DNA of 64,000 nt from Squalus acanthias (Eukaryota). Positions within the stretch are counted from its first letter, which is position 1, and each line of letters starts with the position of its first letter. The position numbers and the translations under genes are program-made. Under the pieces are notes generated by a model that saw nothing but the letters and a program-made list of their open reading frames with translations, made no database searches and had not been told where the DNA came from. This document shows positions 15,860 to 31,099 of the stretch, piece by piece. The stretch lies in NCBI GenBank assembly GCA_030390025.1, contig CM059431.1, forward strand, positions 116,376,001 through 116,440,000, in the 5' to 3' direction.

Positions 15860-16572
15860 TGAAATTCGTATCCGTAGCACCTACAAGTACGCTTAGAGTT
15901 CCAAAATGGCGTCCGCGCAGCACGCGTGCACACTTCTGGTGCAAGTCATGCCAGACACCATACTGATGAGGGCATTAGCGCACGCGCAGTGAGCATCCGC
16001 CGGAAGTATGCAGAGTAGGCAGATCATGACGTCAATCAGCATGCAACGCTGATTTGATGCCTGCGGTGCCATTTTGGAGCACAATGCTCCAGCTAACGCC
16101 CTCTCTTAACCTCGCACAGCTGAACAAGCATTCAGGAGCAGGAAGGGCACCCCCCAACGAGTGCTATTTAAAGGGATCATTACCAACTTTCAGGTTAGCT
16201 GCTGATTGATTTCTACTGGCTGCTGCTCTGATTGTACAAGTATTTGGTGCTTTCTAGAGTTATTTAAAGTTGTTAAAGTCTACAGGGAGTGGTGTGGAAG
16301 GTGCTGAAGGCCTTTGCCCTGACTTTTGCACAAACCAGATGCTCCCAAACATGGGTGCACTAGCAGGAATTCTCTTTGGAATACAGCATGACTTGCAGAA
16401 TGCTGGAAGAGGGAGGAGGAGTAGGGGGAGAAGGGCACTCAGCAGGAGGCCATATCCACCCAGGGTGTTGAAGGAGCAATTCTCCTACCTCAACCTCAGC
16501 AAGGAGCAGCGTGTGAGACGTCTGTGCTTCAGTAAGGATGTCCTCATTGAAATCTTCCACCTGCTGCAGCTA
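15860..16572 (+). mobile_element. Truncated Harbinger: left end and start of transposase
   Basis: TATTTAAAGGG at 16165, then MGALAG..RRPYPPRV..SYLNLS..RRLCFSK, homologous to the transposase N-terminus at 29940. Confidence 0.7.
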
Positions 16573-16584
16573 GATGACTGGGAG

Positions 16585-16619
<35 letters not shown>

Positions 16620-16653
16620 TCAATATATATATATATATGTATATATAAAATAT
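16585..16653. repeat. (TA)n microsatellite
   Basis: Visible directly in the sequence. Confidence 0.9.
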
Positions 16654-17048
16654 ACTTCTCTTCACTTCACCTGACGAAGGAGCAGCGCTCAGAAAGCTTG
16701 TGATTTCAAATAAAACTGTTGGGGGTAAAAATTCAGTTGGTTGTGCTTCCCGTTAGCGCCTTAAGAGGGCGCTAATGGAGCACAAAGCCGCTAACGCCCG
16801 GGCGCAGCGATGTTTGCGCCGCTCGGGAACTTAACTAGAGATTGTGCGGTGGCGCTAAAACTTACCGCTGCGACCACCTGCGCGCGCAGATTGTGACGTA
16901 ATTCCATGGTGCAACGCCCTTGTGGCGTCCCAGAGCTGAAATTGAGTGGCGCCCCCTGCCTTACCGCCTGGCGCATCCAACGACCGGAAGACTGGAACGC
17001 TATCAATCGCTGTGGGGCTGGGGGGGGGGGGGCGCTATTTAAAGGGGG

Positions 17049-18689
17049 TGTAAGGGATTCTGACCCTGCGTGTCTCGCAGCCTGTGAGATTCACGCGGCT
17101 CTGTGCAGCCTGTATGTCAGTGCGGGTTTAGGCCTTGTTGCCTGTTCTGGTCTCCAGCCAGTCTGGGAGCACTAGACACACCTGTGAGTGGTTCGAAACA
17201 CTCGCCCTTACGGTTCTAGACACTGGACTTAGATGCGAGAGCAGTAATGGAGATGAAACTCATGTAGACTCGGTTGAATGGTACGAAATGGAAAATCTTT
17301 ATTGCATGATATTTAAGATTACGAAATACATGTCATAAGCACAGATTAATGACAGTACAATCTTACAAGCAGTTATATAGCTGATCCTAGGGAAACGAGG
17401 AACGAACGACACACCGTAAATAGGGGCACACATTACAAGTATCCTTAATACTTAAACCCTCCCCTATCAATATCTGTCCTAGCTAGATTCGTAGGATTTC
17501 GAGACTCATGCTCACCACTCGTGATAACTCGGAGAAATTCCGAATAGCTGATCGGATGTTTTTCACCGCAGCACCCACGTGTCGATCAGGAGGTCTCCTG
17601 GTCCCACTTGTTTACTTGCTTCTGCTCCGGCTAGCAGGCTGGACCGTCTGCTGTGATGAAGATCTGTGTTGGTTGGTTTAACAGGTACTTTCCGAATACA
17701 GCCCAGTCAATATCATCTTTGACGATCCGTTCTTGCAAGTTCAAAGAAGTCTTCCTGGCAAGGAAAACTTGGCTGTTCGACCTACAGGCACGGTCGGGAT
17801 TTACTGACCGTGGCGATGAGTATGGTCTTCCTCTCTTCTCATCTCATCTCATCTCATCTCATCTCATCTCGGGCCTTTGGTTCCGATGCCAGTTACCAAC
17901 ATAGGTCTTCGTTACGCGACACGAGGTAGATCCGAACGGATCAGAAAATTCAACAGTCTTTTTCAAAGAGGCACCAGGCAAGCAGGAACAAGACTACGAG
18001 TCAAAAACACAGGAGCAGCCACGAGGTTACGAGTCGATCGGATAAGAGAATAAGAGAAAGATGGACGGTTGGAGCTTGTAATTATAGTACAAAATCTTCC
18101 GTTTCCCGCCCAACCTTAATGTCCTTTCTTTTGTTTGAGTGTGGCGCTCAAATGTCTTGTATGGGTGATCTCCGTTCTTAATGGGTTTCGGGGCTACTCG
18201 TAACTGTCTGAGTACCTGTTAATATTTCTCCCATTGTTAAATCGGTCGGTGTTCTCCCTGGAGGGGTTTTGTGGCTTCCAAGTGTATTGTATAACTACCT
18301 GCTAACGGCTCTCTCATCGTAGAGTCGTTGGGATTTTACATATTAATGTCTTTTGGATGGGCCCTTGATTACTCGGTACAATAGCTTTCATTCGTACCTG
18401 GGAGACCGATTTCAGTATTTATGTGTATACTGCAAACCCATAATGTCTCGTGTATTATCTTCACTGTGCTGAATCTTAATCGATCTTGCACAAATGTTTA
18501 TTGGAACGCCATCTTGTCTGCCTGTCGAAAAGTCTAGAATGTTCTGTCACGAGGTGCGGCGGCCATTTTACAGGCTGCTTGTGTCCACTTTGAGAAACCT
18601 GACAGCATTCTGCTGAAATAAAAGCTGTTTGAACGAGACTCTGTGTTTTCTCCTTATTAATAAAATCGCGATATATTGCGAATTCTACA
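17049..18689 (-). repeat. 3' LTR (1641 bp)
   Basis: Direct repeat of 28111-29746; about 5 substitutions and one extra ATCTC unit, counted by eye. Confidence 0.97.
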
Positions 18690-18701
18690 GTCCCTCCTGT
18701 T
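18690..18701 (-). promoter_or_regulatory. Polypurine tract
   Basis: Minus strand AACAGGAGGGAC directly precedes the 3' LTR TGT. Confidence 0.7.
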
Positions 18702-19139: not shown

Positions 19140-21491
19140 TTACACGGTGCTTTCATCGTGCACGCGCACGTAACGTTCTCGCCACTCTCCCGTGTTTTCA
19201 TGCTTGGTGAGGCGTTTGTCTCTTTTACAATGTACGACCAATAGGAACACTACAATAAACACTTGACATACGACTAAAATGTGGGAGGCTATTCTGATCC
19301 ATGAAGGCACTTCAATATTGGTGAACAGATTCCACCACGGTGGAACTACTATATCCAGAATGTCTGTTCCTATTTCGACAGTTATCTGTTCTAATGTGTA
19401 AAAATGTTTCTGTGACACCGCGACGGCTTTTAAAAGCTTGGTGAGGTGTTCAGGGAGAGGGGGAATGAGGTATCCGAAATGCGCGACGAATCGTTGCAAG
19501 TCGGTGAAATTCTCTTTTACTGTGAGATGAACAGTGGATGGTTCAGGGATTGGGATAATTCGCTGTTGTGCTACTTGAACTTCCGCCCTGGGTTTAAAAC
19601 AGAAACTGCTGTCACTCACCGGACACCGGCTACGGTTTCCATGCTGGTAGTGTTGCGCTGCAGTGGTAACACAATATGTTCCACCCCCGATGTATGCTAC
19701 CTGCGGAGGCACATGATCTTGTGCCATTGCCTCCATGGTACAATTCATGGACTTGGCGCCAGTCGTTCTGAACCCGCACTGTGGTGTTAAAAAGGCATTC
19801 AAGTGCTGGGGGCACAGTATTATGTGTGCTCCCCTGCCACGACAACCAGAGAGATCTGTACCTGTCATCGTTTGCTCCCAGCGGATGACGTAAGGTGGAA
19901 CCGCTGCATAACGAATGTGGGCTCCCCCCTGAATGACACCAATGTTCTCTACCCGATACACCGGGGCGGGCTTTGCTGTGTCGCCCAAAACCGGCATGCG
20001 TAAAACTATACCCATAATGGTATGGTTTGATCGTCCGCAGTCCACGGGGACTGGGTATGCTTCTGAAGCTAGCCTGAGCTGGCACGGGCTCAGTGCGTTC
20101 TGAAAAGGGTGGAGCGCCCGCAGGTGTTTGTTACTTATCCAGGACGGGACCAAACCTTGTTTTAAATCCTCCAAATTACTGCGGCCTTCGCCCAGTAACC
20201 ACGCCCCGTAAAGCACGCACACCTCGTTCTGCGCAGCTTGTTCGGATGCATTCCGATCTTCCCTAATCAGGGCATTTACCGTCTTTGCATGTTTCTCCAA
20301 CTCTGCTATAATTTCCTTTAAATGGAGAGTCATGGCTTAGTCCTCGTGTAGACCCGACCCAACCACCTTATTCTCATCTGTTAGAATGTCTTTTAATTGT
20401 GTCTTTAAACCATTAATCTGGGTCTGCAGCTCCACACTGTCTAGAGCATTGACCACAGATGTACCCGTGTTAAAAGCAGTGAACGCGTCGTTCACTAAAC
20501 CCCTTCTTTGCCTCCCTACTTGATCCAAAACTTCCTGTGGTGCGGTGTACAAACTTGTTTTATCAATTTCCGCGAAATCGAATTTGTAAAATTGTCTGAA
20601 CATCTTGGTCAACAGGACCTGATACAACTGTTCCGTCTTTTTGGGGCACCACTCTGGTAACCGCACCTCGGTGAGATTTAAAATCACCGAGGCCACCGCG
20701 TAATGTACCCCCTGAAATAGTATCTGGTCTGTGGGGACCAGTACCAAACCATTCCCGGGTCCCTTACTAGTTTTAGGGCACCCTTCCTCTTCAGCTAGAA
20801 CCACCGGAATCGTGGGCGGGGCTTTGCGTGGGCGCGTAATGAGCTCAGTGGCATTTACCGGGATCGAAGAGTATGGGGCTCCGCACCCCCTGGTGCTCGC
20901 ATCCCACCTCATCCCCTGTCCGTTATCCTGCCACTGATTAATGAAAAATATGGATATGCCTTTGGGGCAAGGGTATTTTGACCCCCACATGCATACATAA
21001 ATTCCCTCGTCCGGTTCCCACCATTTGTCCCAACAGACTTTCACTTGTCCGTTTGTCCCCGTAATTGTCCGATGGGTATTATTACCCAGTCGTTCCCACT
21101 CGACCGAAGAGTTCCTCATAGTTTTGCTCAGCTTTCGCAGCCACCACCATCGGCTCAATGGGACATTCCCACTACAAGTCAAACAAATCCGTTTGCCGAC
21201 GGTGACGCTGATCCTGGGTGCGATGATCCTTACTTTGGGGCACATTAAAGAAGTCTCTTTGTAGGCAAACCCCGATGTGCTAGAATACTCCGTTGAGTTC
21301 GTTCCCAGCCATCCTGGCCACCTTCCCTTGTGGAAATAGGTGCTGGTCTCCTCTGCCTCCCGTCTTCCGGTCCCATCCACCGCGATGGGGGCCGTGTCCC
21401 CGGAACATCCAAACACCACGACATCCTTGGTGCGGCCTCGATAGGCCAATCCACATCCGATTGCCGCGAGCAATACTAGAATTCGTTCCAT
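19140..21491 (-). pseudogene. env: Envelope glycoprotein (signal peptide, Ig-like domain, class I fusion protein) with one in-frame TAA at 20337-20339
   Basis: Signal-like MERILVLLAAIGCGLA, RQRR/GLV cleavage site, heptad repeat, Cys-rich ectodomain and hydrophobic TM near the C-terminus. The two ORFs are in one frame (GAC TAA GCC ATG). Confidence 0.85.
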
Positions 21492-21777: not shown

Positions 21778-24700
21778 TTAAATTCTGAGAAGGCTGCTGC
21801 GAGCTCTTCCCGATGGTGGGAGGGCACTGACCCTTCCCTTTGAACTGCCGCAGCCTGTTGCTGCACTGATTCCTTCCTCTGATCTGCCGCCGCCTGTTGC
21901 TGCTGCGATGGGGCCGGGCTGTATCTGGGTTGCCTTAACCTTAAGTCTACGCCTTGGGGCAGTCTGGGGACATGACCACATCCTCCTGGGCTGGGGTTCT
22001 CTACTTGACCTACGGGGAGTTGCCATGGGCGGGGGTTCCGTGACTGACGGACCGGGTTCCGAGACTTCCATCGGGACGACCTGGGGTTCCACCACAGTCG
22101 CTGGCTCCGCCTCCGCTGACTCCGCCTCCCTAACCTCGGGGCTCGCAGTTTGTGGCTCCGCCCTGCTCAGCCCAGCAGGCGGCCCTTCACTCGCGATCTC
22201 TGCCTCCCCCGAGGGCGGGACGTTCAAAGCGGGCGGCTCTGTCTCTGGGGTCCTCACCGTCACTCCCTGTGCTCCCACAGCGGCTGGCCCCGCCTCCCCT
22301 AGCTCCTCCCTCCTGTCTTCGGGACCTGCAGCTTGTGTGTCCACCCTGTGTGGATCTCTATCTGCAGCCCGTATCCTCCCTATACCTAAAATGGGACCGT
22401 TCCCCAAAAACCACTCGTCTTCATCACTATCCTCATCTGACTCGAGTTCCCGGAATTCTCCCTCATCTGACTCCCAACCCCACAAAAATGCTTCATGATC
22501 TTCCAGGATGTCCCCTCCCCTGATGCAAGCTGCTATGCCTGCCTGTGTGCCTTGTGGTCCTACCTGGGGCTGTGCTTCCCCACTGGCGGGGTTTACCGCT
22601 GTGGTTTTCCCTTGCGCACCTGGCTTGTACAGTTTGCATTGGTTTACGTGGAACCACTTAGTGCGCCGAGGTACTTTTACGGCGTATACCATGGGACTCG
22701 CCTTGTCTACAATGTTGTAGGGTCCCATATACAGTGGTTCCAGACTCCCTACTCTGGCGTAGTTTCTGACCATGACCTGGTCTCCTACTTCCCACTCCCG
22801 CGTTTTGCGGGGTTCCAGCAGCAGGCGATTGCCCTGATGCTGCCTTCCCATGTTCCCAGCCGCCTGCTCATAAACCTGCTTCAGGCGCTCCAAGAGAGTC
22901 TGGGCGAACTTGTCCCTGCTTATCTCTTGGAGCTGACCCTCAGTGAGCACCGGCGCTAGCACATGGGTGGGGGTTCGCATGAGCCTCCCAGTCATCACCT
23001 CGTGCGGGGAGTACCCCGTACTTTTTGACTGACTGGCTCGGACCCCCATGAGGACTAAAGGCAGAACTTCCGCCCATTTTTGGGGCGAGTTCCTAGTCTC
23101 TTTCCTCAATTTCTCCTTCAGGGTCCGGTTCATGCGTTCAACAATCCCGGATGACTGGGGATTGTGTGCTACGTGCCACTTCCCTTCAATGCCCAAAAGC
23201 ATGAGGGTGTTCTGCATCACCTGGCCGGTGAAATGACTCCCTTGGTCTGACTCCACAAAACGGGGAAGTCCCCACCGCGAGAACACTTCCCGGACCAAGA
23301 TTTTTGCAGTACCCAGTGCCGTAGCTGTTCGACAGGGGAAGGCTTCCACCCACTTGGAAAACACATCCACCAAGACGAGGCAGTATTTATAACCTCCCTG
23401 AGTGGTGGGCAGGGGTCCTATATAGTCGATCTGTATCGACTGCCATGGTCCCTCTACCCTTCTTACGTGTCCCATGGGCACCTTCCTTTTCTGGGGGTCT
23501 GGGTTGTTTGCAGCGCACACAAGACAGTTTGCACAGAACTCGCGGACTTGTTCCCTGAGCCCTGGCCACCATCCCGCTTGCTCTACCCGTTGCCAGGTAA
23601 CCTCGGGCCCGGGGTGCCCTGCCCCTGGTCCCTCGTGAGCCAACTGGAGGAATTCCCTCCTGTGCTGCTGCGGCACAACCCACTGCTCCTCGCGGAACAG
23701 CATGCCTTCCTTAACTGAGAGGGTTGCCGTACTGTACGGACCTTCTACCTGCCTCCCCTCAGCAATGGTTTTTAGGACTGCTTTTAGGGCGGGATCCTGG
23801 GTTTGGACGGTCTTAAGGTCTAGGGGCAATGCTACCCTGGTGTTCCCGGGATTCCCGTCCCTGCCTTGGATCGCTGCTATGGGTCTGGTCCCATAGGGGT
23901 CCCAGAAAATGCCGTTGCGGGCACCTTCCCTGGCTAGCGCATCTGCCTGCTGGTTGCCCTCCCCACGGGGCTCTGTGGAGGAGTGAGCTTTCACCTTATG
24001 GATGAAAATCTCTCCTTCCTCCCCTACTGCTGCTGCTAAGATCTTTTCCAGCAAGGGCTTCACCGTTAAAGGTCGCCCGTCCGCGGAGGTGTATCCACGG
24101 CGGGACCAAATGGCCAGGTATTCCGTACACGAATTGCAGGTGAACATACTGTCCGAGCAAATCGTGTATGGGGTTGGGAAAATGTCTGGGTGGGTAACAA
24201 CGTACACCACGGCAGACAGCTCAGCCTGCTGCGCGCTCATGGTGCTGGGGAGCTTGATCGCCAGGGCAAGGTTTGCCGCAGGGTCATAAACTCCACACCC
24301 CGTGAGTCGTTCGCCAGCAGATACTGTGCTAGACCCATCAACATAAATCTCGCGCCCAGTGGGATGTATCCCGGCCCGTAAACCTATGTTGACATCCCAC
24401 ACCCCTTCCACCGAACACCGGTGGGTTGTACCGGGGTATACCAAATTGGCCGCAAGCCTGGGCTCGCAAAGACCTTTTACTTTAAGATCCATCTGGGAAA
24501 GAAGAAGGGTCCAGCGCGCAATGCGCACGCTGCTTACGGTCCCATCTTTAATCCTCGCATCTAGAAGCATCTTAGTTGGTGTGTGATGTGTGAGGAGAGT
24601 GATGGGAGAGAGCCCTGTGAAGATCGCTGATCTTTTCACAGCCCAATGCGTGGCTAAAAGGTGCCTTTCGCAATTGGAGAAACTTCTCTCCACATCCGTT

Positions 24701-26298
24701 AACACCCTGGATGAATAGACAACCGGCCTCAGCTTGCCGTGACGCTCTTGGAGCAGCACAGCGCTCAAGCTGTCTCCGCTGGCAGCTACCTCCAGGAAAA
24801 ACTCCTTCCCCCCATCTATGGCCCCTAAGGCTGGCGCGGTCTGCAGATCCCTTTTTAACTTCTCGAAGGCTGCTTGGCAGCCCTCGTCCCAAGACCACTC
24901 CACCCCCTTATGGAGGAGTCGGAGGAGCGGCGCTGCTGTGGCCGCATAGTCTTCGATAAAGTCCCTGCAGTAACCGGTCAGTCCCAAGAAGGACCTCACA
25001 CCCCTTATGTTGTTGGGAATCGGTAATTCTTGCACCGACTCCCTCCTCGCTTTGTCTATGGCTCTTTCCCCAGCGCGTATGGTCAGTCCCAGGAATTTTA
25101 CTTCCCGCTGACCGATACGTGCTTTCTTAGGATTTATTTTAAAACCCTTTCTCGCTAGCAGCTCCAATAACTCGTCCAGTAGTGGTCCATGCTCCTCCCT
25201 TGAGTCCGTAAATAGGAGCAAATCATCCACGTACTGCACTATCTGATTGGGCTGACTAAACTCCTTTAAACTTCCTGCCATACACTGATGGAAAATACTG
25301 GGGCTATTGTGGAAACCCTGTGGCAGGCAGTTCCATGTGTACTGTTGTCCTTTGAAAGTAAAGGCAAACTTGTACTGGTCCTCTCGCCTCAGCGGGATGG
25401 ACCAAAAACCGTTCGAGATATCCAGCACCGTGAACGTGGTCGCGGACGCTGGGATGCTCCCTATTAGGTCAGCAACTGCTGCTACCGTGGGCGCGCAGGC
25501 GGGAATGTTACTGTTAAGGACTCTGTAGTCCACCGTGGCTCTCCACGAATTATCCGGCTTCCTAACCGGCCATAATGGGGAGTTCACGTGTGTGGCTATC
25601 GGCCTCAACACGCCCTGCTGCACCAAGGAGGACATGGCTGTCTCCATATCGGGTTCTGCTTCTTTGGGGAAGTTATACTGCTTTTGGGGCCGGGTCATGG
25701 GGTCCCCATCTACGCTGACCTCAAACCCGATAACCCTCCCACAATCGTGCTTGTGGGTTGCAAACGCGTGCATATTATCTGACACGTACGTTTGCATGTC
25801 CGTTGGGACATCTGCGACCATAAGCCTGAGGTCGTAGCCTCCGGATGGCTGTATGGTACACAGGACCCCTGTTTCTTCCTCCCCCGGAATCACTACTACC
25901 TCGCCTTTTTCACCCTTAGCCCCCCAGAGACAGTGATTTCTGAGGTCCACGAGGATCCCGTGTCCCGATAGAAGATCAGACCCGAGAATACCTCTTCCAC
26001 CCCCCTCCTGCCATTCCATCAGTATACACTTCCACTTAAGGTGAAGTGCTCCCAAACGAATGGATAGCGGAAGGGAGAACGCGCCAGCCTGTTCTTTTCC
26101 TGTGAACCCCGCTAACGTGAATGGGACCCTGGTAGATAGCGGCGAGTCAAAAGGGCTATCTGTATGGATTATGGTGCAAGAAGCTCCCGTGTCCAACAAA
26201 TAACTACCCCTCTGTTTCTCTACCTCCATCTCCACCAAAGGTCGCTTCCACGCATCATAGCTAAGCGGACACAGGTAGACGGGCTGCGCGGGTTCTAG
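21778..26298 (-). CDS. pol: Pol polyprotein: protease, RT, degenerate RNase H, RNase H, integrase, C-terminal extension
   Basis: LLDTGA; LPQGF..YVDD; FLEVAAS (tether); YVDGS..AEL..SDS..KAH..GNQQAD; HHCC, DDE and GPY motifs. The frame is open from the gag stop onward. Confidence 0.95.
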   Translation of the reverse strand, partial: LEPAQPVYLCPLSYDAWKRPLVEMEVEKQRGSYLLDTGASCTIIHTDSPFDSPLSTRVPFTLAGFTGKEQAGAFSLPLSIRLGALHLKWKCILMEWQEGGGRGILGSDLLSGHGILVDLRNHCLWGAKGEKGEVVVIPGEEETGVLCTIQPSGGYDLRLMVADVPTDMQTYVSDNMHAFATHKHDCGRVIGFEVSVDGDPMTRPQKQYNFPKEAEPDMETAMSSLVQQGVLRPIATHVNSPLWPVRKPDNSWRATVDYRVLNSNIPACAPTVAAVADLIGSIPASATTFTVLDISNGFWSIPLRREDQYKFAFTFKGQQYTWNCLPQGFHNSPSIFHQCMAGSLKEFSQPNQIVQYVDDLLLFTDSREEHGPLLDELLELLARKGFKINPKKARIGQREVKFLGLTIRAGERAIDKARRESVQELPIPNNIRGVRSFLGLTGYCRDFIEDYAATAAPLLRLLHKGVEWSWDEGCQAAFEKLKRDLQTAPALGAIDGGKEFFLEVAASGDSLSAVLLQERHGKLRPVVYSSRVLTDVERSFSNCERHLLATHWAVKRSAIFTGLSPITLLTHHTPTKMLLDARIKDGTVSSVRIARWTLLLSQMDLKVKGLCEPRLAANLVYPGTTHRCSVEGVWDVNIGLRAGIHPTGREIYVDGSSTVSAGERLTGCGVYDPAANLALAIKLPSTMSAQQAELSAVVYVVTHPDIFPTPYTICSDSMFTCNSCTEYLAIWSRRGYTSADGRPLTVKPLLEKILAAAVGEEGEIFIHKVKAHSSTEPRGEGNQQADALAREGARNGIFWDPYGTRPIAAIQGRDGNPGNTRVALPLDLKTVQTQDPALKAVLKTIAEGRQVEGPYSTATLSVKEGMLFREEQWVVPQQHRREFLQLAHEGPGAGHPGPEVTWQRVEQAGWWPGLREQVREFCANCLVCAANNPDPQKRKVPMGHVRRVEGPWQSIQIDYIGPLPTTQGGYKYCLVLVDVFSKWVEAFPCRTATALGTAKILVREVFSRWGLPRFVESDQGSHFTGQVMQNTLMLLGIEGKWHVAHNPQSSGIVERMNRTLKEKLRKETRNSPQKWAEVLPLVLMGVRASQSKSTGYSPHEVMTGRLMRTPTHVLAPVLTEGQLQEISRDKFAQTLLERLKQVYEQAAGNMGRQHQGNRLLLEPRKTREWEVGDQVMVRNYARVGSLEPLYMGPYNIVDKASPMVYAVKVPRRTKWFHVNQCKLYKPGAQGKTTAVNPASGEAQPQVGPQGTQAGIAACIRGGDILEDHEAFLWGWESDEGEFRELESDEDSDEDEWFLGNGPILGIGRIRAADRDPHRVDTQAAGPEDRREELGEAGPAAVGAQGVTVRTPETEPPALNVPPSGEAEIASEGPPAGLSRAEPQTASPEVREAESAEAEPATVVEPQVVPMEVSEPGPSVTEPPPMATPRRSSREPQPRRMWSCPQTAPRRRLKVKATQIQPGPIAAATGGGRSEEGISAATGCGSSKGRVSALPPSGRARSSLLRI

Positions 26299-28106
26299 TC
26301 ATGGGGTATTATTAGACGGTCCTGCGGCACCTACGGGGCCGGTTGCGACCGCCACCTTTCCATGTGCACTCAATAAATTGCGCATGGCTCCTAACACTAC
26401 TTCGAGGTCGTCGGGAGGGGTGGGTGCATTAGCTTCCCTAGCCGGGACAGGCGCCTGGGCTCGGACCGCGGGATTTTTATCCTTGGAATCTTTCCAAGGG
26501 TTCCTGCAATGCTTGCGCCAGTGCCCTGTCTTCCCACACCCGTAACAAGCATTACTTGCCTGTGGGGCGCGATTACCCTCCTGATGCCACTCTCTTTGAT
26601 ACGGGGCTGCGGGTCGTACCTCATGTACTTTTCCCTTAAGGGGACGTGTTGCCATACCCCTTATATTGCGATATCCTAACGTGAGTCAATTCAAGACCGA
26701 CTCTTCCGTAATGTTGGGGTCATTGGGATCAAACCATGCTTTTGCCTGCTCTCTGACGGCTGGTAAACTGTTGGCTATTATGCACCTAAGCCAATGAGCT
26801 AAACCGGCGCCTTCCACATCTTCGCGCTCGGGCGCACCTAGACAACTGCGCTCATATACTGGCCACAGCCTGTCGGCAAAAACCTTCGGGGGTTCTCCCT
26901 CCATCTGCACTGTCTGTCCCACTCTAGCAAACGGACCTTCATCGTCCGCCCCCAACACTTCCAGGACCTCATTCTTTAATGCCTCATAAGTCTTGGTTCC
27001 CCTCTTGCTCTCGCCTGAGAGACACTGAAGGATTGTACTGCCTAACGAAAACAACAGCATTTTTGCTGTTTCCCCATCATCGCAGCCGTTAATGGCTGCG
27101 GTTTGCTCAACTTCTCTGAAATGTACGGAAGGGTCGTCTGCCTCGGTTAGCTTCCGTACGTGATTTATCATAACTCTCAGCTGATGTGAACTGTGAGGCA
27201 ACACAAGCTGTCCGAGGAGATCCCCTGGTTCTTCCCCACCGTTTCTGTTTGGGCCCCTTTTAATACCCGTTACTGGATACAACGGTCCCTTTTCCACTTC
27301 TTTCTCAATGGGCTCTTTCGTTTCTTCCATTGCTTCCTCCCTAACCCAGGTTTCCGAATAGCTGGTGGCGCAGAGGGCGCAGTGGCTACTACTTCCTCTG
27401 CTTTACTTGGTGGGGATTTCTTAAACTTCTCACTTACTAGCGGCTGGTGTGCTGACGGACTGATAAGGCACACCATGCCGTGCGCTTTGTTCACGGCCTT
27501 TTTGAGGTGCTCTATCTCTTTTTGGCAGGCGCTATGATCGGCTCCCTGAAACTCATCCTCAAGGGCCAACTTATATGCCGCCCTAACCCCCGTTAAGCTC
27601 TCTTCCTGAGTTCTTATCTGGGCAGCTTGGCGGGCACATCGTTCCTTTAACCTGCTCTCATTTAACTTTGCCTCAGTGACCTGACACTCGAGGTAATCTA
27701 TCCTTGTTTTATGGTGACTGGAGATTTCCTGGCGTTCTTGGTGCAACGCACTTAAATTCCTAATGAGCATTTCCCCTCCAGAAACCTTCTCATCCATTTC
27801 TCCCTCTAAATGACTGATTCGAGCTATTAGCGCTGTAATGGTCTGGTTTGAAATCTGAACCTGCCTTTTGTAACACATAAGCCAGACTGCTTTCTCGAGT
27901 GTCTTTTTATGTTCTTTACTATCTGTCCACCTTTCGGCTGCCTCTAGTGGACTTTTATCCGCTAACAATTCACTTATCCATTTCTTAGTTAGATTAACCT
28001 TTCCGAACACATAATCTGCTATCTTTTCCTGCATAACATTTCGTACAGTCACACCAAAGTCTAACACACTACCCTCTCGCTGCCAGTGTCCTGCCGCGGT
28101 CGCCAT
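26299..28106 (-). pseudogene. gag: Gag (coiled-coil N-terminus, capsid-like region, CCHC knuckle) with one frameshift near 27364 and one in-frame TGA at 26686
   Basis: Three consecutive ORFs between PBS and pol; CYGCGKTGHWRKHC zinc knuckle. Confidence 0.85.
28089..28105 (-). promoter_or_regulatory. Primer-binding site, tRNA-Ser-like
   Basis: TGGCGACCGCGGCAGGA, 5 nt after the LTR; resembles the complement of tRNA-Ser 3' ends (TGGCG.....GGCAGGA). Confidence 0.65.
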
Positions 28107-28110
28107 TTTC

Positions 28111-29746
28111 TGTAAGGGATTCTGACCCTGCGTGTCTCGCAGCCTGTGAGATTCACGCGGCTCTGTGCAGCCTGTATGTCAGTGCGGGTTTAGGCCTTGT
28201 TGCCTGTTCTGGTCTCCAGCCAGTCTGGGAGCACTAGACACACCTGTGAGTGGTTCGAAACACTCGCCCTTACGGTTCTAGACACTGGACTTAGATGCGA
28301 GAGCAGTAATGGAGATGAAACTCATGTAGACTCGGTTGAATGGTACGAAATGGAAAATCTTTATTGCATGATATTTAAGATTACGAAATACATGTCATAA
28401 GCACAGATTAATGACAGTACAATCTTACAAGCAGTTATATAGCTGATCCTAGGGAAACGAGGAACGAACGACACACCATAAATAGGGGCACACATTACAA
28501 GTATCCTTAATACTTAAACCCTCCCCTATCAATATCTGTCCTAGCTAGATTCGTAGGATTTCGAGACTCATGCTCACCACTCGTGATAACTCGGAGAAAT
28601 TCCGAATAGCTGATCGGATGTTTTTCACCGCAGCAACCACGTGTCGATCAGGAGGTCTCCTGGTCCCACTTGTTTACTTGCTTCTGCTCCGGCTAGCAGG
28701 CTGGACCGTCTGCTGTGATGAAGATCTGTGTTGGTTGGTTTAACAGGTACTTTCCGAATACAGCCCAGTCAATATCATCTTTGACGATCCGTTCTTGCAA
28801 GTTCAAAGAAGTCTTCCTGGCAAGGAAAACTTGGCTGTTCGACCTACAGGCACGGTCGGGATTTACTGACCGTGGCGATGAGTATGGTCTTCCTCTCTTC
28901 TCATCTCATCTCATCTCATCTCATCTCGGGCCTTTGGTTCCGATGCCAGTTACCAACATAGGTCTTCGTTACGCGACACGAGGTAGATCCGAACGGATCA
29001 GAAAATTCAACAGTCTTTTTCAAAGAGGCACCAGGCAAGCAGGAACAAGACTACGAGTCAAAAACACAGGAGCAGCCACGAGGTTACGAGTCGATCGGAT
29101 AAGAGAATAAGAGAAAGATGGACGGTTGGAGCTTGTAATTATAGTACAAAATCTTCCGTTTCCCGCCCAACCTTAATGTCCTTTCTTTTGTTTGAGTGTG
29201 GCGCTCAAATGTCTTGTATGGGTGATCTCCGTTCTTAATGGGTTTCGGGGCTACTCGTAACTGTCTGAGTACCTGTTAATATTTCTCCTATTGTTAAATC
29301 GGTCGGTGTTCTCCCTGGAGGGGTTTTGGGGCTTCCAAGTGTTTTGTATAACTACCTGCTAACGGCTCTCTCATCGTAGAGTCGTTGGGATTTTACATAT
29401 TAATGTCTTTTGGATGGGCCCTTGATTACTCGGTACAATAGCTTTCATTCGTACCTGGGAGACCGATTTCAGTATTTATGTGTATACTGCAAACCCATAA
29501 TGTCTCGTGTATTATCTTCACTGTGCTGAATCTTAATCGATCTTGCACAAATGTTTATTGGAACGCCATCTTGTCTGCCTGTCGAAAAGTCTAGAATGTT
29601 CTGTCACGAGGTGCGGCGGCCATTTTACAGGCTGCTTGTGTCCACTTTGAGAAACCTGACAGCATTCTGCTGAAATAAAAGCTGTTTGAACGAGACTCTG
29701 TGTTTTCTCCTTATTAATAAAATCGCGATATATTGCGAATTCTACA
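28111..29746 (-). repeat. 5' LTR (1636 bp)
   Basis: Direct repeat of 17049-18689, followed on the minus strand by the PBS. Confidence 0.97.
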
Positions 29747-29939
29747 GGGGCCTCTTCCTGTCTTTTTCTGTGGTCGACATTTTTGCACCACTCGTTCTGA
29801 GAGAGAGAGAGAGATTCGGAGAGAGAGAAAGAGAGACTTCTGCATTGACTCAACGCTTTGTGAGGTAGTTTTGCCTACTGATCCTAACTTCGCTGGTTCT
29901 TTAGTTGCTGTCCTTCATTACTTTGCTTGCAAAGAGAAT

Positions 29940-31099
29940 ATGGGGGCTGCACTGATTGGGGGCGTCATCCTGCTCCAGCTGAATCGGAGGATACAGAGAC
30001 GCAAAGAGAGAGTGGCAATGATGGCCAGACGGAGGAGGGCCAACAGGCGTATGTACAGGAGAGCTTACCCTCCCAGGGTATATCGTGAACAGCACTCCTA
30101 CATCCATATGTCTGAGGAGCTGTGTTTGCGAAGGCTGCGATTCAGCAAGGAGGTGGTCACTGAGCTCTGCCACCTGCTGCAGCCAGATCTGCAGCCTCAA
30201 CTGAGGTCCAGGACGTCTCTGTCGGTGGCAGTGAAGGTCACAGTGGCTCTCAACTTTTACGCTACTGGCTCATTTCAAGCTGCTGCTGGGGACCTCGCCA
30301 ATATTTCCCAGTTCGCGGTGCATTGCTGCATCCGGCAGGTCACAAATGCCCTCTTTAAAAGGAGACGAGAGTTCATCTCTTTCCCCATGACCCCAGACAA
30401 GCAGCGTGACCGCGCTCTGGGCTTTGCGAGGGTAGCGGGCTTCCCCATGGTGCAGGGAGCCATTGACTGCACGCATGTGGCTTTGCGTGCTCCGCATGAG
30501 AATGCCGAGGAATTCCGGAACAGAAAGGGGTTCCATTCCTTGAATGTTCAGTTGGTCTGTGACCACAGACAGCTGATACTCACTGTCAATGCCCACTATC
30601 CTGGCAGCTGCCACGATGCTTTTATCCTGCGCCAGACTACTGTGGCAGAACTTTTCGAGGCACCGCATCAGCCAGTTGGTTGGCTTCTCGGGGACAAGGG
30701 GTATGCATTGAGCACCTGGCTGATGACACCGCTCCGTACGCCCAACACCCCTGCTGAGCTGCGGTAAATGAGAGCCATCAAGCTACCAGGAACATAATTG
30801 AGCGCACAATTGGCGTGCTGAAGCAACGGTTCCGCTGTCTCGACCATTCTGGAGGAGCCCTGCAGTACTCGCCTGAGCAAGTATCCAACTTCGTAGTCGT
30901 GTGCTGCATGTTGCATAACATGGCAATCCTCAGGACCCAGCCAATGCCACCAGGCCTTGGAGCACCACCAGAGGAGGAGGAGGAAGAGGAGGAAGAGGAC
31001 GAGGAGGATGATCATCAGCAGCACCAAGGCGGGAGGGCGGCCCACAATGGTCAAACTGCAAGGGCCATCCGTCAACGGCTAATAGCAAGCCGCTTCTAG
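29940..31099 (+). pseudogene. Harbinger (HARBI1-like) DDE transposase with a 1-nt frameshift near 30766
   Basis: GAIDCTHV, NRKGFHSLNVQ, GSCHDA and GDKGY motifs. CGG TA(C) AAT GAG restores RYNESH..IER..LKQRF. Confidence 0.92.

Follow-up and report, generated by a model that had tools for sequence, protein, structure and literature searches.

An immunoglobulin-like domain predicted ahead of an F-type fusogen core in the envelope protein of an endogenous retrovirus of Squalus acanthias

Fusogens of the F type normally rely on a separate attachment protein, and how a retroviral envelope glycoprotein (Env) built on such a core could engage a receptor by itself is the question raised by an endogenous retrovirus (ERV) of the shark Squalus acanthias. 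The window analysed here is a 64-kb stretch of that genome (contig CM059431.1, positions 116,376,001 to 116,440,000), to which all nucleotide coordinates below refer, and it contains a 12.7-kb provirus on the minus strand bounded by two 1.64-kb long terminal repeats (LTRs). Its env gene (19143..21491, minus strand; 783 codons) encodes a protein in which a divergent immunoglobulin (Ig) V/I-like domain is predicted to stand in front of an F-like fusogen. A first-pass annotation, made from the sequence alone, had proposed such a fusion and the lack of a separate attachment protein. On the latter point it holds, as the list of open reading frames (ORFs) contains no second glycoprotein ORF of at least 80 amino acids within the provirus. 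On the former, Pfam, a profile of the module, VIA-align and Foldseek all lend support to a class I fusogen of the F type preceded, on its N-terminal side, by an Ig V/I-like domain.

The segment at 20985-21245 (minus strand), encoding Env residues 83-169, contains ISVTVGKRICLTC, RWWWLRK and DEGIYVC exactly as had been claimed. In HMMER alignments to an antibody light-chain variable domain (VL) and to the V domain of CRTAM, C106, W116 and C167 take the places of the B-strand cysteine, the C-strand tryptophan and the F-strand cysteine. Their counterparts in VL are Cys23, Trp35 and Cys88, with D161-x-G-x-Y-x-C167 lying on the F-strand motif. Five of the six homologues in the alignment extend over the F strand, and all five keep the triad; we infer a C106-C167 disulfide, and two additional cysteines, C103 and C153, are found in the domain. 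Submitted on their own, the 87 residues matched Pfam Ig_3 at E=0.0078 (17.1 bits), and within the 384-residue N-terminal part of Env the same family was matched at E=0.15. HMMER searches of the PDB returned antibody VL and JAM-A at E values of 0.17-0.28, and in a protein-language-model search the nearest named clusters were all Ig, with scores of 0.92-0.94.

Two profiles were compared with the PDB. The first, A4, represents the Ig module of the window-type Env and was built from six cartilaginous-fish homologues; its best matches were to the V domain of CRTAM (E=0.0077 and 0.015), followed by DIP-eta, OPCML and neurotrimin. Among the 10 matches listed for A4, all six at E<0.4 belong to the immunoglobulin superfamily (IgSF), and the other four (E>=1) are unrelated. 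The second, A5, was assembled from 12 N-terminal modules of another Env clade of the same genome (P0019-type, described below), with X at stops. Its match to JAM-A reached E=0.0034, and 13 of 13 matches were IgSF proteins.

Structure prediction points the same way. In the AlphaFold model of the whole Env, computed from a 42-sequence alignment with X placed at the break in the reading frame (mean per-residue confidence, pLDDT, 64.6), seven beta strands span Env 93-169 at pLDDT 58-78, and the same strands reach 64-82 when the N-terminal part is modelled alone. When the latter model was compared with 48,161 chains by VIA-align, 50 of the 50 rows listed were Ig folds, among them VL, T-cell receptor V, CD147 Ig0, CD79b, titin, NCAM2, BTLA and CD8. 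The best of them reached a Z score of 6.8 and a root mean square deviation (rmsd) of 2.2 over 85 residues. The well-fitting matches listed by Foldseek (rmsd ~2-5 Å, ~90 columns, target template-modelling score mostly 0.5-0.66) were likewise Ig V domains without exception, most of them antibody VL, together with a shark NAR V domain.

Several results weigh against an Ig-like domain. Every test was sub-threshold when taken singly, whether Pfam, Foldseek or VIA-align, so that the fold is predicted by each route below the formal cut-off: Ig_3 scored 17.1 bits against an Ig-clan gathering cut-off of 30 bits, the best VIA-align Z lies under 8 and is middling by the tool's own grading, and none of the 500 Foldseek matches of the N-part model in the PDB had E<=0.001, the best being 0.012. 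The viral structure library BFVD gave no useful match: probabilities were low, E was 0.031 at best, and a receptor-binding domain (RBD) of a retrovirus was not among its matches. A wider N-terminal profile (A3), swollen to 569 positions by chimeric gene models, had no PDB match. When Env 18-235 was modelled alone, mean pLDDT was 54, with the G strand and both flanks below 50. As regards the Env relatives introduced below, a PDB search with the N-terminal modules of frogs gave no IgSF match below E=0.9, and comparison with A4 and A5 linked them to neither; in profile comparison the modules of the Mustelus type and of P0038 likewise show no relation to that of the window type. The term Ig-like is thus established for part of the Env family only. 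Finally, the env of the copy in the window is broken by a single stop.

These weak scores, together with models of moderate to low confidence and the ability of AlphaFold to drift toward common folds, would be expected if the Cys/Trp/D-x-G-x-Y-x-C pattern were a chance resemblance in a tryptophan-rich beta region of another fold. We consider this quite unlikely: Ig was the only result of five independent kinds of test (Pfam, two PDB profiles, a language model and two structural aligners), and species agree at the triad and at the framework positions, whereas the loop-equivalent stretches vary. On the predicted models, an Ig V/I-like fold of the N-terminal domain is highly probable, and the domain is highly divergent.

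The remainder of Env was compared with known fusogens. A Foldseek search with the full Env model returned 236 matches at E<=0.001, headed by the F protein of human parainfluenza virus 3 (hPIV3; 1ztm_C, E=1.2e-10); other paramyxovirus and pneumovirus F proteins among the matches listed were those of respiratory syncytial virus, Langya virus, Newcastle disease virus, Nipah virus, Hendra virus and parainfluenza virus 5. The core, Env 240-650, is predicted at pLDDT 85-95, and a head of domains I, II and III flanked by heptad repeats A and B (HRA and HRB), the F-type (class Ib) layout, is present in the predicted structure. The Env family profile (A2) found its best PDB sequence match in the foamy-virus Env gp130 (8rm1_D, E=0.003; 8rm0_A, E=0.014). 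No Pfam Fusion_gly (PF00523) match was obtained for the two env halves (E<=10), the whole Env (E<=0.1) or 10 relatives (E<=1), and the Foamy_virus_ENV model did not match the window Env. The gamma-type models TLV_coat and GP41 were also without a match, and an adjacent cysteine pair occurs nowhere in Env, which excludes a CX6CC motif. Its predicted structure thus places Env with the class I fusion glycoproteins, in the structural type of paramyxovirus F and foamy-virus Env.

The arrangement of this protein can be followed from its N-terminus (all features on the minus strand). A hydrophobic signal peptide read from the sequence (Env 1-17, 21441..21491; helix 2-17 in the model) is followed by a pre-Ig segment (Env 18-87, 21231..21440) that is conserved in skate and shark relatives, being 44-77% identical to six homologues, with pLDDT mostly below 60 in both models. 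The Ig V/I-like domain with its C106, W116 and D161-x-G-x-Y-x-C167 signature occupies Env 88-187 (20931..21230), its probable G strand being ISIFFINQW (Env 179-187). A linker containing cysteine, proline and a NAT sequon (Env 188-237, 20781..20930; pLDDT below 50), read from the sequence, leads to the F2-like core (Env 238-330, 20502..20780; pLDDT 85-95), which begins where the alignments of relatives begin, at a family-wide C-P-x4-G-P-x-x-G-L motif. The core closes at a putative furin-type cleavage site, RQRR (Env 327-330, 20502-20513), directly before the fusion-peptide-like GLVNDAFTAF; R-x-[KR]-R is kept in relatives. The fusion-peptide-like segment and HRA (Env 331-444, 20160..20501; model helices 333-376 and 387-444, with F-protein fold matches) precede the beta-rich head domains (Env 445-650, 19542..20159; pLDDT 71-95, with Foldseek and profile matches). 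HRB (Env 683-714, 19350..19445; model helix 679-711) and a hydrophobic transmembrane anchor (Env 731-753, 19233..19301; helix 730-766) complete the protein, with a 30-residue tail after the anchor. The layout given by the first-pass annotation is thus retained for RQRR, fusion peptide, heptad repeat and anchor, and is amended by the ~90 residues of F2-like core (238-326) that lie between the proline-rich linker and RQRR. Ahead of the F2-like unit, Env therefore carries an accessory block of ~220 residues made of a 70-residue leader segment, the Ig V/I-like domain and the Cys/Pro-rich linker.

How this Env compares with the systems nearest to it can be stated feature by feature. Like paramyxovirus and pneumovirus F, described as class Ib in the available text of PMC11468914, it has the predicted fold of Env 238-650, a short F2-like unit, a furin-type site before the fusion peptide, HRA and HRB, and a C-terminal anchor; unlike these proteins it lacks a PF00523 match, bears the N-terminal Ig-containing block of ~220 residues, and belongs to a retrovirus lacking an attachment protein of its own. 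Foamy-virus Env gp130 (8rm0 / 8rm1), the best PDB sequence match of A2, is likewise a retroviral Env on an F scaffold with a built-in receptor module, according to the same source. The foamy-virus RBD, however, has another fold and is inserted between the heptad repeat C (HRC) helix and the furin site, whereas in the window Env only ~25 residues separate helix 284-306 from RQRR, the extra module is N-terminal and no leader peptide is evident.

The distribution of the block was surveyed among relatives. A phmmer search with Env against 1.84 billion representative sequences returned 51 proteins at E<=0.001; the source was looked up for 30 of these, and a sequence or source name was read for 44. 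Among named homologues, those of the skate Rhinoraja and the sawshark Pristiophorus are the closest, and the cartilaginous fish named further include Mustelus, two Chiloscyllium species, Heterodontus, Heptranchias, Scyliorhinus and Rhincodon. Beyond cartilaginous fish, frogs (Pelodytes, Mantella and two Xenopus species) and the coelacanth are represented; no teleost was found among the named relatives (30 of 51 looked up). All nine distant relatives listed align solely from query residues 221-237 on, which marks the family-wide start of the core. The module is kept in skate and shark relatives but is not universal: in P0041 and in the coelacanth (Latimeria) protein P0050 the signal peptide runs straight into the core. 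Other N-terminal modules were met with as well. That of P0038 matches Pfam V-set at E=0.0022, the N-terminus of P0019 (bamboo shark), a protein labelled 'Ig-like domain-containing protein' in UniRef, matches Ig_3 (E=0.024) and Ig_2 (E=0.046), and those of the frog and Mustelus types have no Pfam match. The tree of the cores pairs module-bearing P0038 with P0041, which has none, as sister sequences (support 98/95). Since relatives exist with the module, with another module and with none, the N-terminal block is an accessory that has been gained, lost or replaced.

Two observations made on these relatives may be recorded here. In the frog proteins P0023 (Pelodytes) and P0052 (Mantella), an R-x-K-R motif lies between the N-terminal hydrophobic stretch and the N-terminal module, and it may be a second furin-type cleavage site releasing a leader, as in foamy-virus Env. 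The public gene models P0006, P0012, P0009 and P0042 join Env pieces to host-like parts, namely a zinc-finger protein, a Niban-like protein and repeats, or, in P0042, to a gag-like coiled coil; they are probably annotation chimeras at ERV insertions.

The first-pass annotation had taken the domain to be captured from the host. The Ig region is 50-74% identical to six homologues and the F2 core 53-71%; as these values are alike, the module is under comparable constraint. A second F-like Env clade, older and of the P0019 type, is present in the same genome with 83 matches, many of them decayed; these genomic copies are 34-81% identical to P0019, most have several stops, and their N-terminal module is also Ig-like. 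Envs of the two clades are 24-28% identical to each other and stand on opposite sides of a split with 99/99 support in the core tree. When their modules were compared by hhalign, A4 and A5 aligned with a probability of 72.3% (E=3.3e-5), staying in register for 85 columns between the B and F strands, and tryptophans at -13 and -9 ahead of the F-strand cysteine are common to both. Only the 12-copy profile gave this signal against A4: alignments of the Ig profile with the single relatives P0019, P0023, P0038 and P0018 remained below 1% probability, and A5 itself showed no relation to P0038 or P0018. The Ig-like module is old and common to the two Env clades.

An alternative origin would make the domain a recently captured host IgSF exon acting as an immune decoy or immunomodulator. 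It could draw on the nearest sequence matches, which are vertebrate cell-surface IgSF proteins (CRTAM, JAM-A, CADM4 and IgLON). Yet these matches have E values of only 0.003-0.4, and the search for the closest host protein yielded no donor, the nearest being CRTAM at E=0.0077 (A4) and JAM-A at E=0.0034 (A5). No cellular IgSF protein was found among the 51 matches at E<=0.001 in the 1.84 billion representatives (44 of 51 read), and each of the eight matches that reach into the N-terminal 220 residues is either a fragment of an Env or a chimeric gene model, with the conserved pre-Ig segment present. The module moreover evolves at the rate of the F2 core and is common to Envs of 24-28% identity. 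A recent host capture is very unlikely, the decoy scenario as a whole being highly improbable, and the earlier idea of a captured host domain is not upheld in that form. As no cellular donor is found and two diverged clades have the module in common, any capture would be ancient and untraceable.

What might the domain do? The fusogen would run, in order, from the signal peptide through an F2-like strand-helix unit, RQRR, the fusion peptide, HRA, the beta-rich head and HRB to the membrane anchor. In front of the F2-like unit, the Ig-like domain would serve as a receptor-binding module and would keep the fusogen from leaving the prefusion state before a receptor is engaged, much as an N-terminal spike domain might, or the IgV-like RBD with its proline-rich linker in Envs of the murine leukaemia virus (MLV) type. 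We think it somewhat likely that the Ig-like domain is a receptor binder coupled to triggering of the F core. This role is suggested because the provirus has one glycoprotein only and relatives without the block keep a complete fusogen, and because the block is conserved, modular and bears predicted glycosylation. Set on an invariant framework, the variable loop-equivalents at Env 123-131, 146-151 and 170-178 fit a putative binding surface.

The same features could be read otherwise. The Ig-like domain might be real but non-binding, a cap, glycan shield or prefusion clamp on the F-like trimer, in which case the receptor would be contacted through the head or the pre-Ig segment, or pH alone would set off fusion. 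That P0041 and P0050 encode the whole fusogen without an N-terminal module, that N-glycan sequons at N127 and N137 are conserved in the module, and that foamy-virus Env fusion is triggered by pH (in the part of PMC11468914 dealing with it) are all compatible with such a cap. However, neither another candidate receptor-binding domain in Env nor an attachment gene in the provirus was found, and MLV-type Envs are described in the accessible text of 10.1101/2024.03.17.585361 as binding their receptor through N-terminal Ig-like modules. We therefore regard a non-binding cap as rather unlikely, and a receptor-binding module as the preferred reading.

The MLV comparison deserves some detail. The surface subunit (SU) of MLV carries a proline-rich region. 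The domain called RBD-C in MLV/feline leukaemia virus (FeLV)-type, that is gamma-type, Envs resembles the window module in being an N-terminal, modified IgV-like and modular domain, and it is presented as a receptor binder moving between Env groups (10.1101/2024.03.17.585361, available portion). The window fusogen differs from these Envs in being F-like and not gamma-type, without CX6CC. The MLV/FeLV RBD is absent from the listed fold matches of the window module, no direct homology comparison with RBD-C having been made. A further-reaching proposal would be that Ig-type modules form an exchangeable toolkit across retroviral fusogen classes, an MLV-like IgV module having been joined, at an early stage of vertebrate history, to an F/foamy-type class Ib fusogen in a lineage related to snakehead retrovirus (SnRV), where an adhesion-molecule-like V domain might engage a host IgSF adhesion molecule by V-to-V trans mimicry. 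The nearest adhesion-molecule matches of the module are CRTAM, JAM-A, CADM and IgLON. We offer this as a conjecture and an unlikely one; if it were true, class III-related retroviruses (foamy and SnRV-like) would ancestrally have had F-type fusogens with interchangeable receptor modules.

The first-pass annotation had referred the Env to lokiretroviruses. Placement of the reverse transcriptase (RT) was made from hand counts by eye against a published RT alignment (PMC7947760), not from a phylogeny. Against the SnRV row, the window RT agrees at 25/53, 27/56, 17/23 and 23/53 positions, about 46% over ~200 positions; against the lokiretroviral Loki-Xtr row, counted in blocks that partly coincide with these, agreement is 16/53, 13/24 and 9/23. 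The likeness to the SnRV clade in RT motifs concerns RT only and not the SnRV Env. From this reading of the sequences, it is fairly probable that the ERV belongs to the SnRV clade, and the RT comparison leans against lokiretrovirus membership. In the table of PMC7947760, lokiretroviruses are recorded for none of the three screened genomes of Orectolobiformes (Chondrichthyes). The label 'lokiretroviral' is not supported as it stands. SnRV-like ERVs have already been reported in elephant shark (PMC4422223), and ERV groups acknowledged in the literature include an 'SnRV clade' (PMC12193657). Frog and coelacanth ERV Pols, ~50% identical, stand nearest to the window Pol, and SnRV is not among the best 120 of 363 Pol relatives. 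PDB scores of Pol do not discriminate (Ty3 246 bits, MLV-type RT 236, foamy-virus protease-RT 220).

The Env of lokiretroviruses is nonetheless akin to that of the window in being F-like and in having a similar G-P-S-S-G-I/L start of the core (PMC7947760, in part). In the Loki-Xtr Env consensus given there, the signal peptide leads straight into the G-P-S-S-G-I core with no N-terminal module, whereas the window Env adds one. Three motifs of the window Env family had no match in the available part of the supplement of the same paper.

Concerning novelty, the first-pass annotation was not aware that such a fusion had been described, which is half borne out. The ingredients are already known separately: retroviral Envs of the F type, Ig-like RBDs of retroviruses and modular class Ib fusogens. 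As to their combination, the literature on lokiretrovirus, shark ERV and SnRV Envs, as covered here with few subscription papers and without survey supplements, yielded no account of an F-like retroviral Env bearing an Ig module, and a survey of anamniote Envs covers, by its accessible text, gamma-type Envs only (10.1101/2021.11.23.469661). The combination of an Ig module with an F-like Env, and the natural series with and without it, appear to be new.

It remains to describe the provirus and its locus. Comparison of the two flanks by blastn placed the 5' LTR at 28111..29747 and the 3' LTR at 17049..18690 (minus strand), the pair being 99.39% identical across 1642 nt (5 mismatches, 1 gap). At typical vertebrate neutral rates, which may not be the rate of this host, the divergence corresponds roughly to 1 million years. 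The gag region (26299..28178, minus strand) is represented by a 302-aa coiled-coil ORF (27270-28178), a piece in another frame (26686-27402) and a piece with a CCHC zinc knuckle (26299-26685), all on the minus strand. An in-frame stop lies at 26686-26688, and a single in-frame stop (26299-26301) between the zinc-knuckle piece and pol has the appearance of a read-through type arrangement. Apart from weak coiled-coil noise, the gag region has no Pfam family at E<=0.1. The 302-aa ORF was also considered as an SMC-like gene and discarded as such, with no PDB match at E<=1 and language-model scores of at most 0.87 to generic coiled coils. The pol gene (21778..26298, minus strand) encodes, by Pfam, protease, RT (RVT_1, 5.1e-36), a tether (RT_RNaseH_2, 2e-21), RNase H (RNase_H, 1.1e-19) and integrase (Integrase_H2C2, 1.8e-17; rve, 5.8e-15), followed by a tail of ~280 residues (21778-22620, minus strand) that is acidic, proline-rich, of low complexity and without a Pfam family. 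The break in env is a TAA at codon 385 (20337-20339, minus strand), inside HRA. No accessory 3' ORF of at least 80 amino acids was listed in the provirus. Outside it, a Harbinger/PIF-type transposase ORF (29721-31099, plus strand; Pfam DDE_Tnp_4, 5.9e-22) has its start inside the outermost part of the 5' LTR, and a similar N-terminal transposase fragment lies on the opposite flank of the provirus at 16258-16674 (plus strand).

In the 3.7-Gb host genome, the 87-residue Ig segment was found at no fewer than 150 places among 5377 first-look candidates; 148 of the 150 are 100% identical to it and the other two 99%, and 109 of them lie within open frames of at least 780 amino acids. The ERV family was amplified very recently in the host genome, and the provirus in the window is one of its young copies, itself defective, of a cartilaginous-fish ERV present in very high numbers. 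The family is unusually young and abundant for an ERV of cartilaginous fish. No joint of leader to env was seen in contigs of four runs aligned to the provirus, and since none of the 14 runs is recorded as RNA, this has no bearing on expression.

According to the available text of PMC11468914, the F scaffold takes up receptor modules, N-terminal in the coronavirus spike and internal in foamy virus. Foamy virus and coronaviruses added receptor modules of their own, and a minimal F scaffold with an Ig-like module at its N-terminus would represent a third solution, here in a retrovirus. The relatives with this module, with other modules and with none provide a comparative series for the coupling of receptor modules to F-type triggering. 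The finding also touches on how Env modules have been exchanged over deep retroviral evolution, and on the question of a common or a host origin for the Ig-like receptor-binding domains found in retroviruses.

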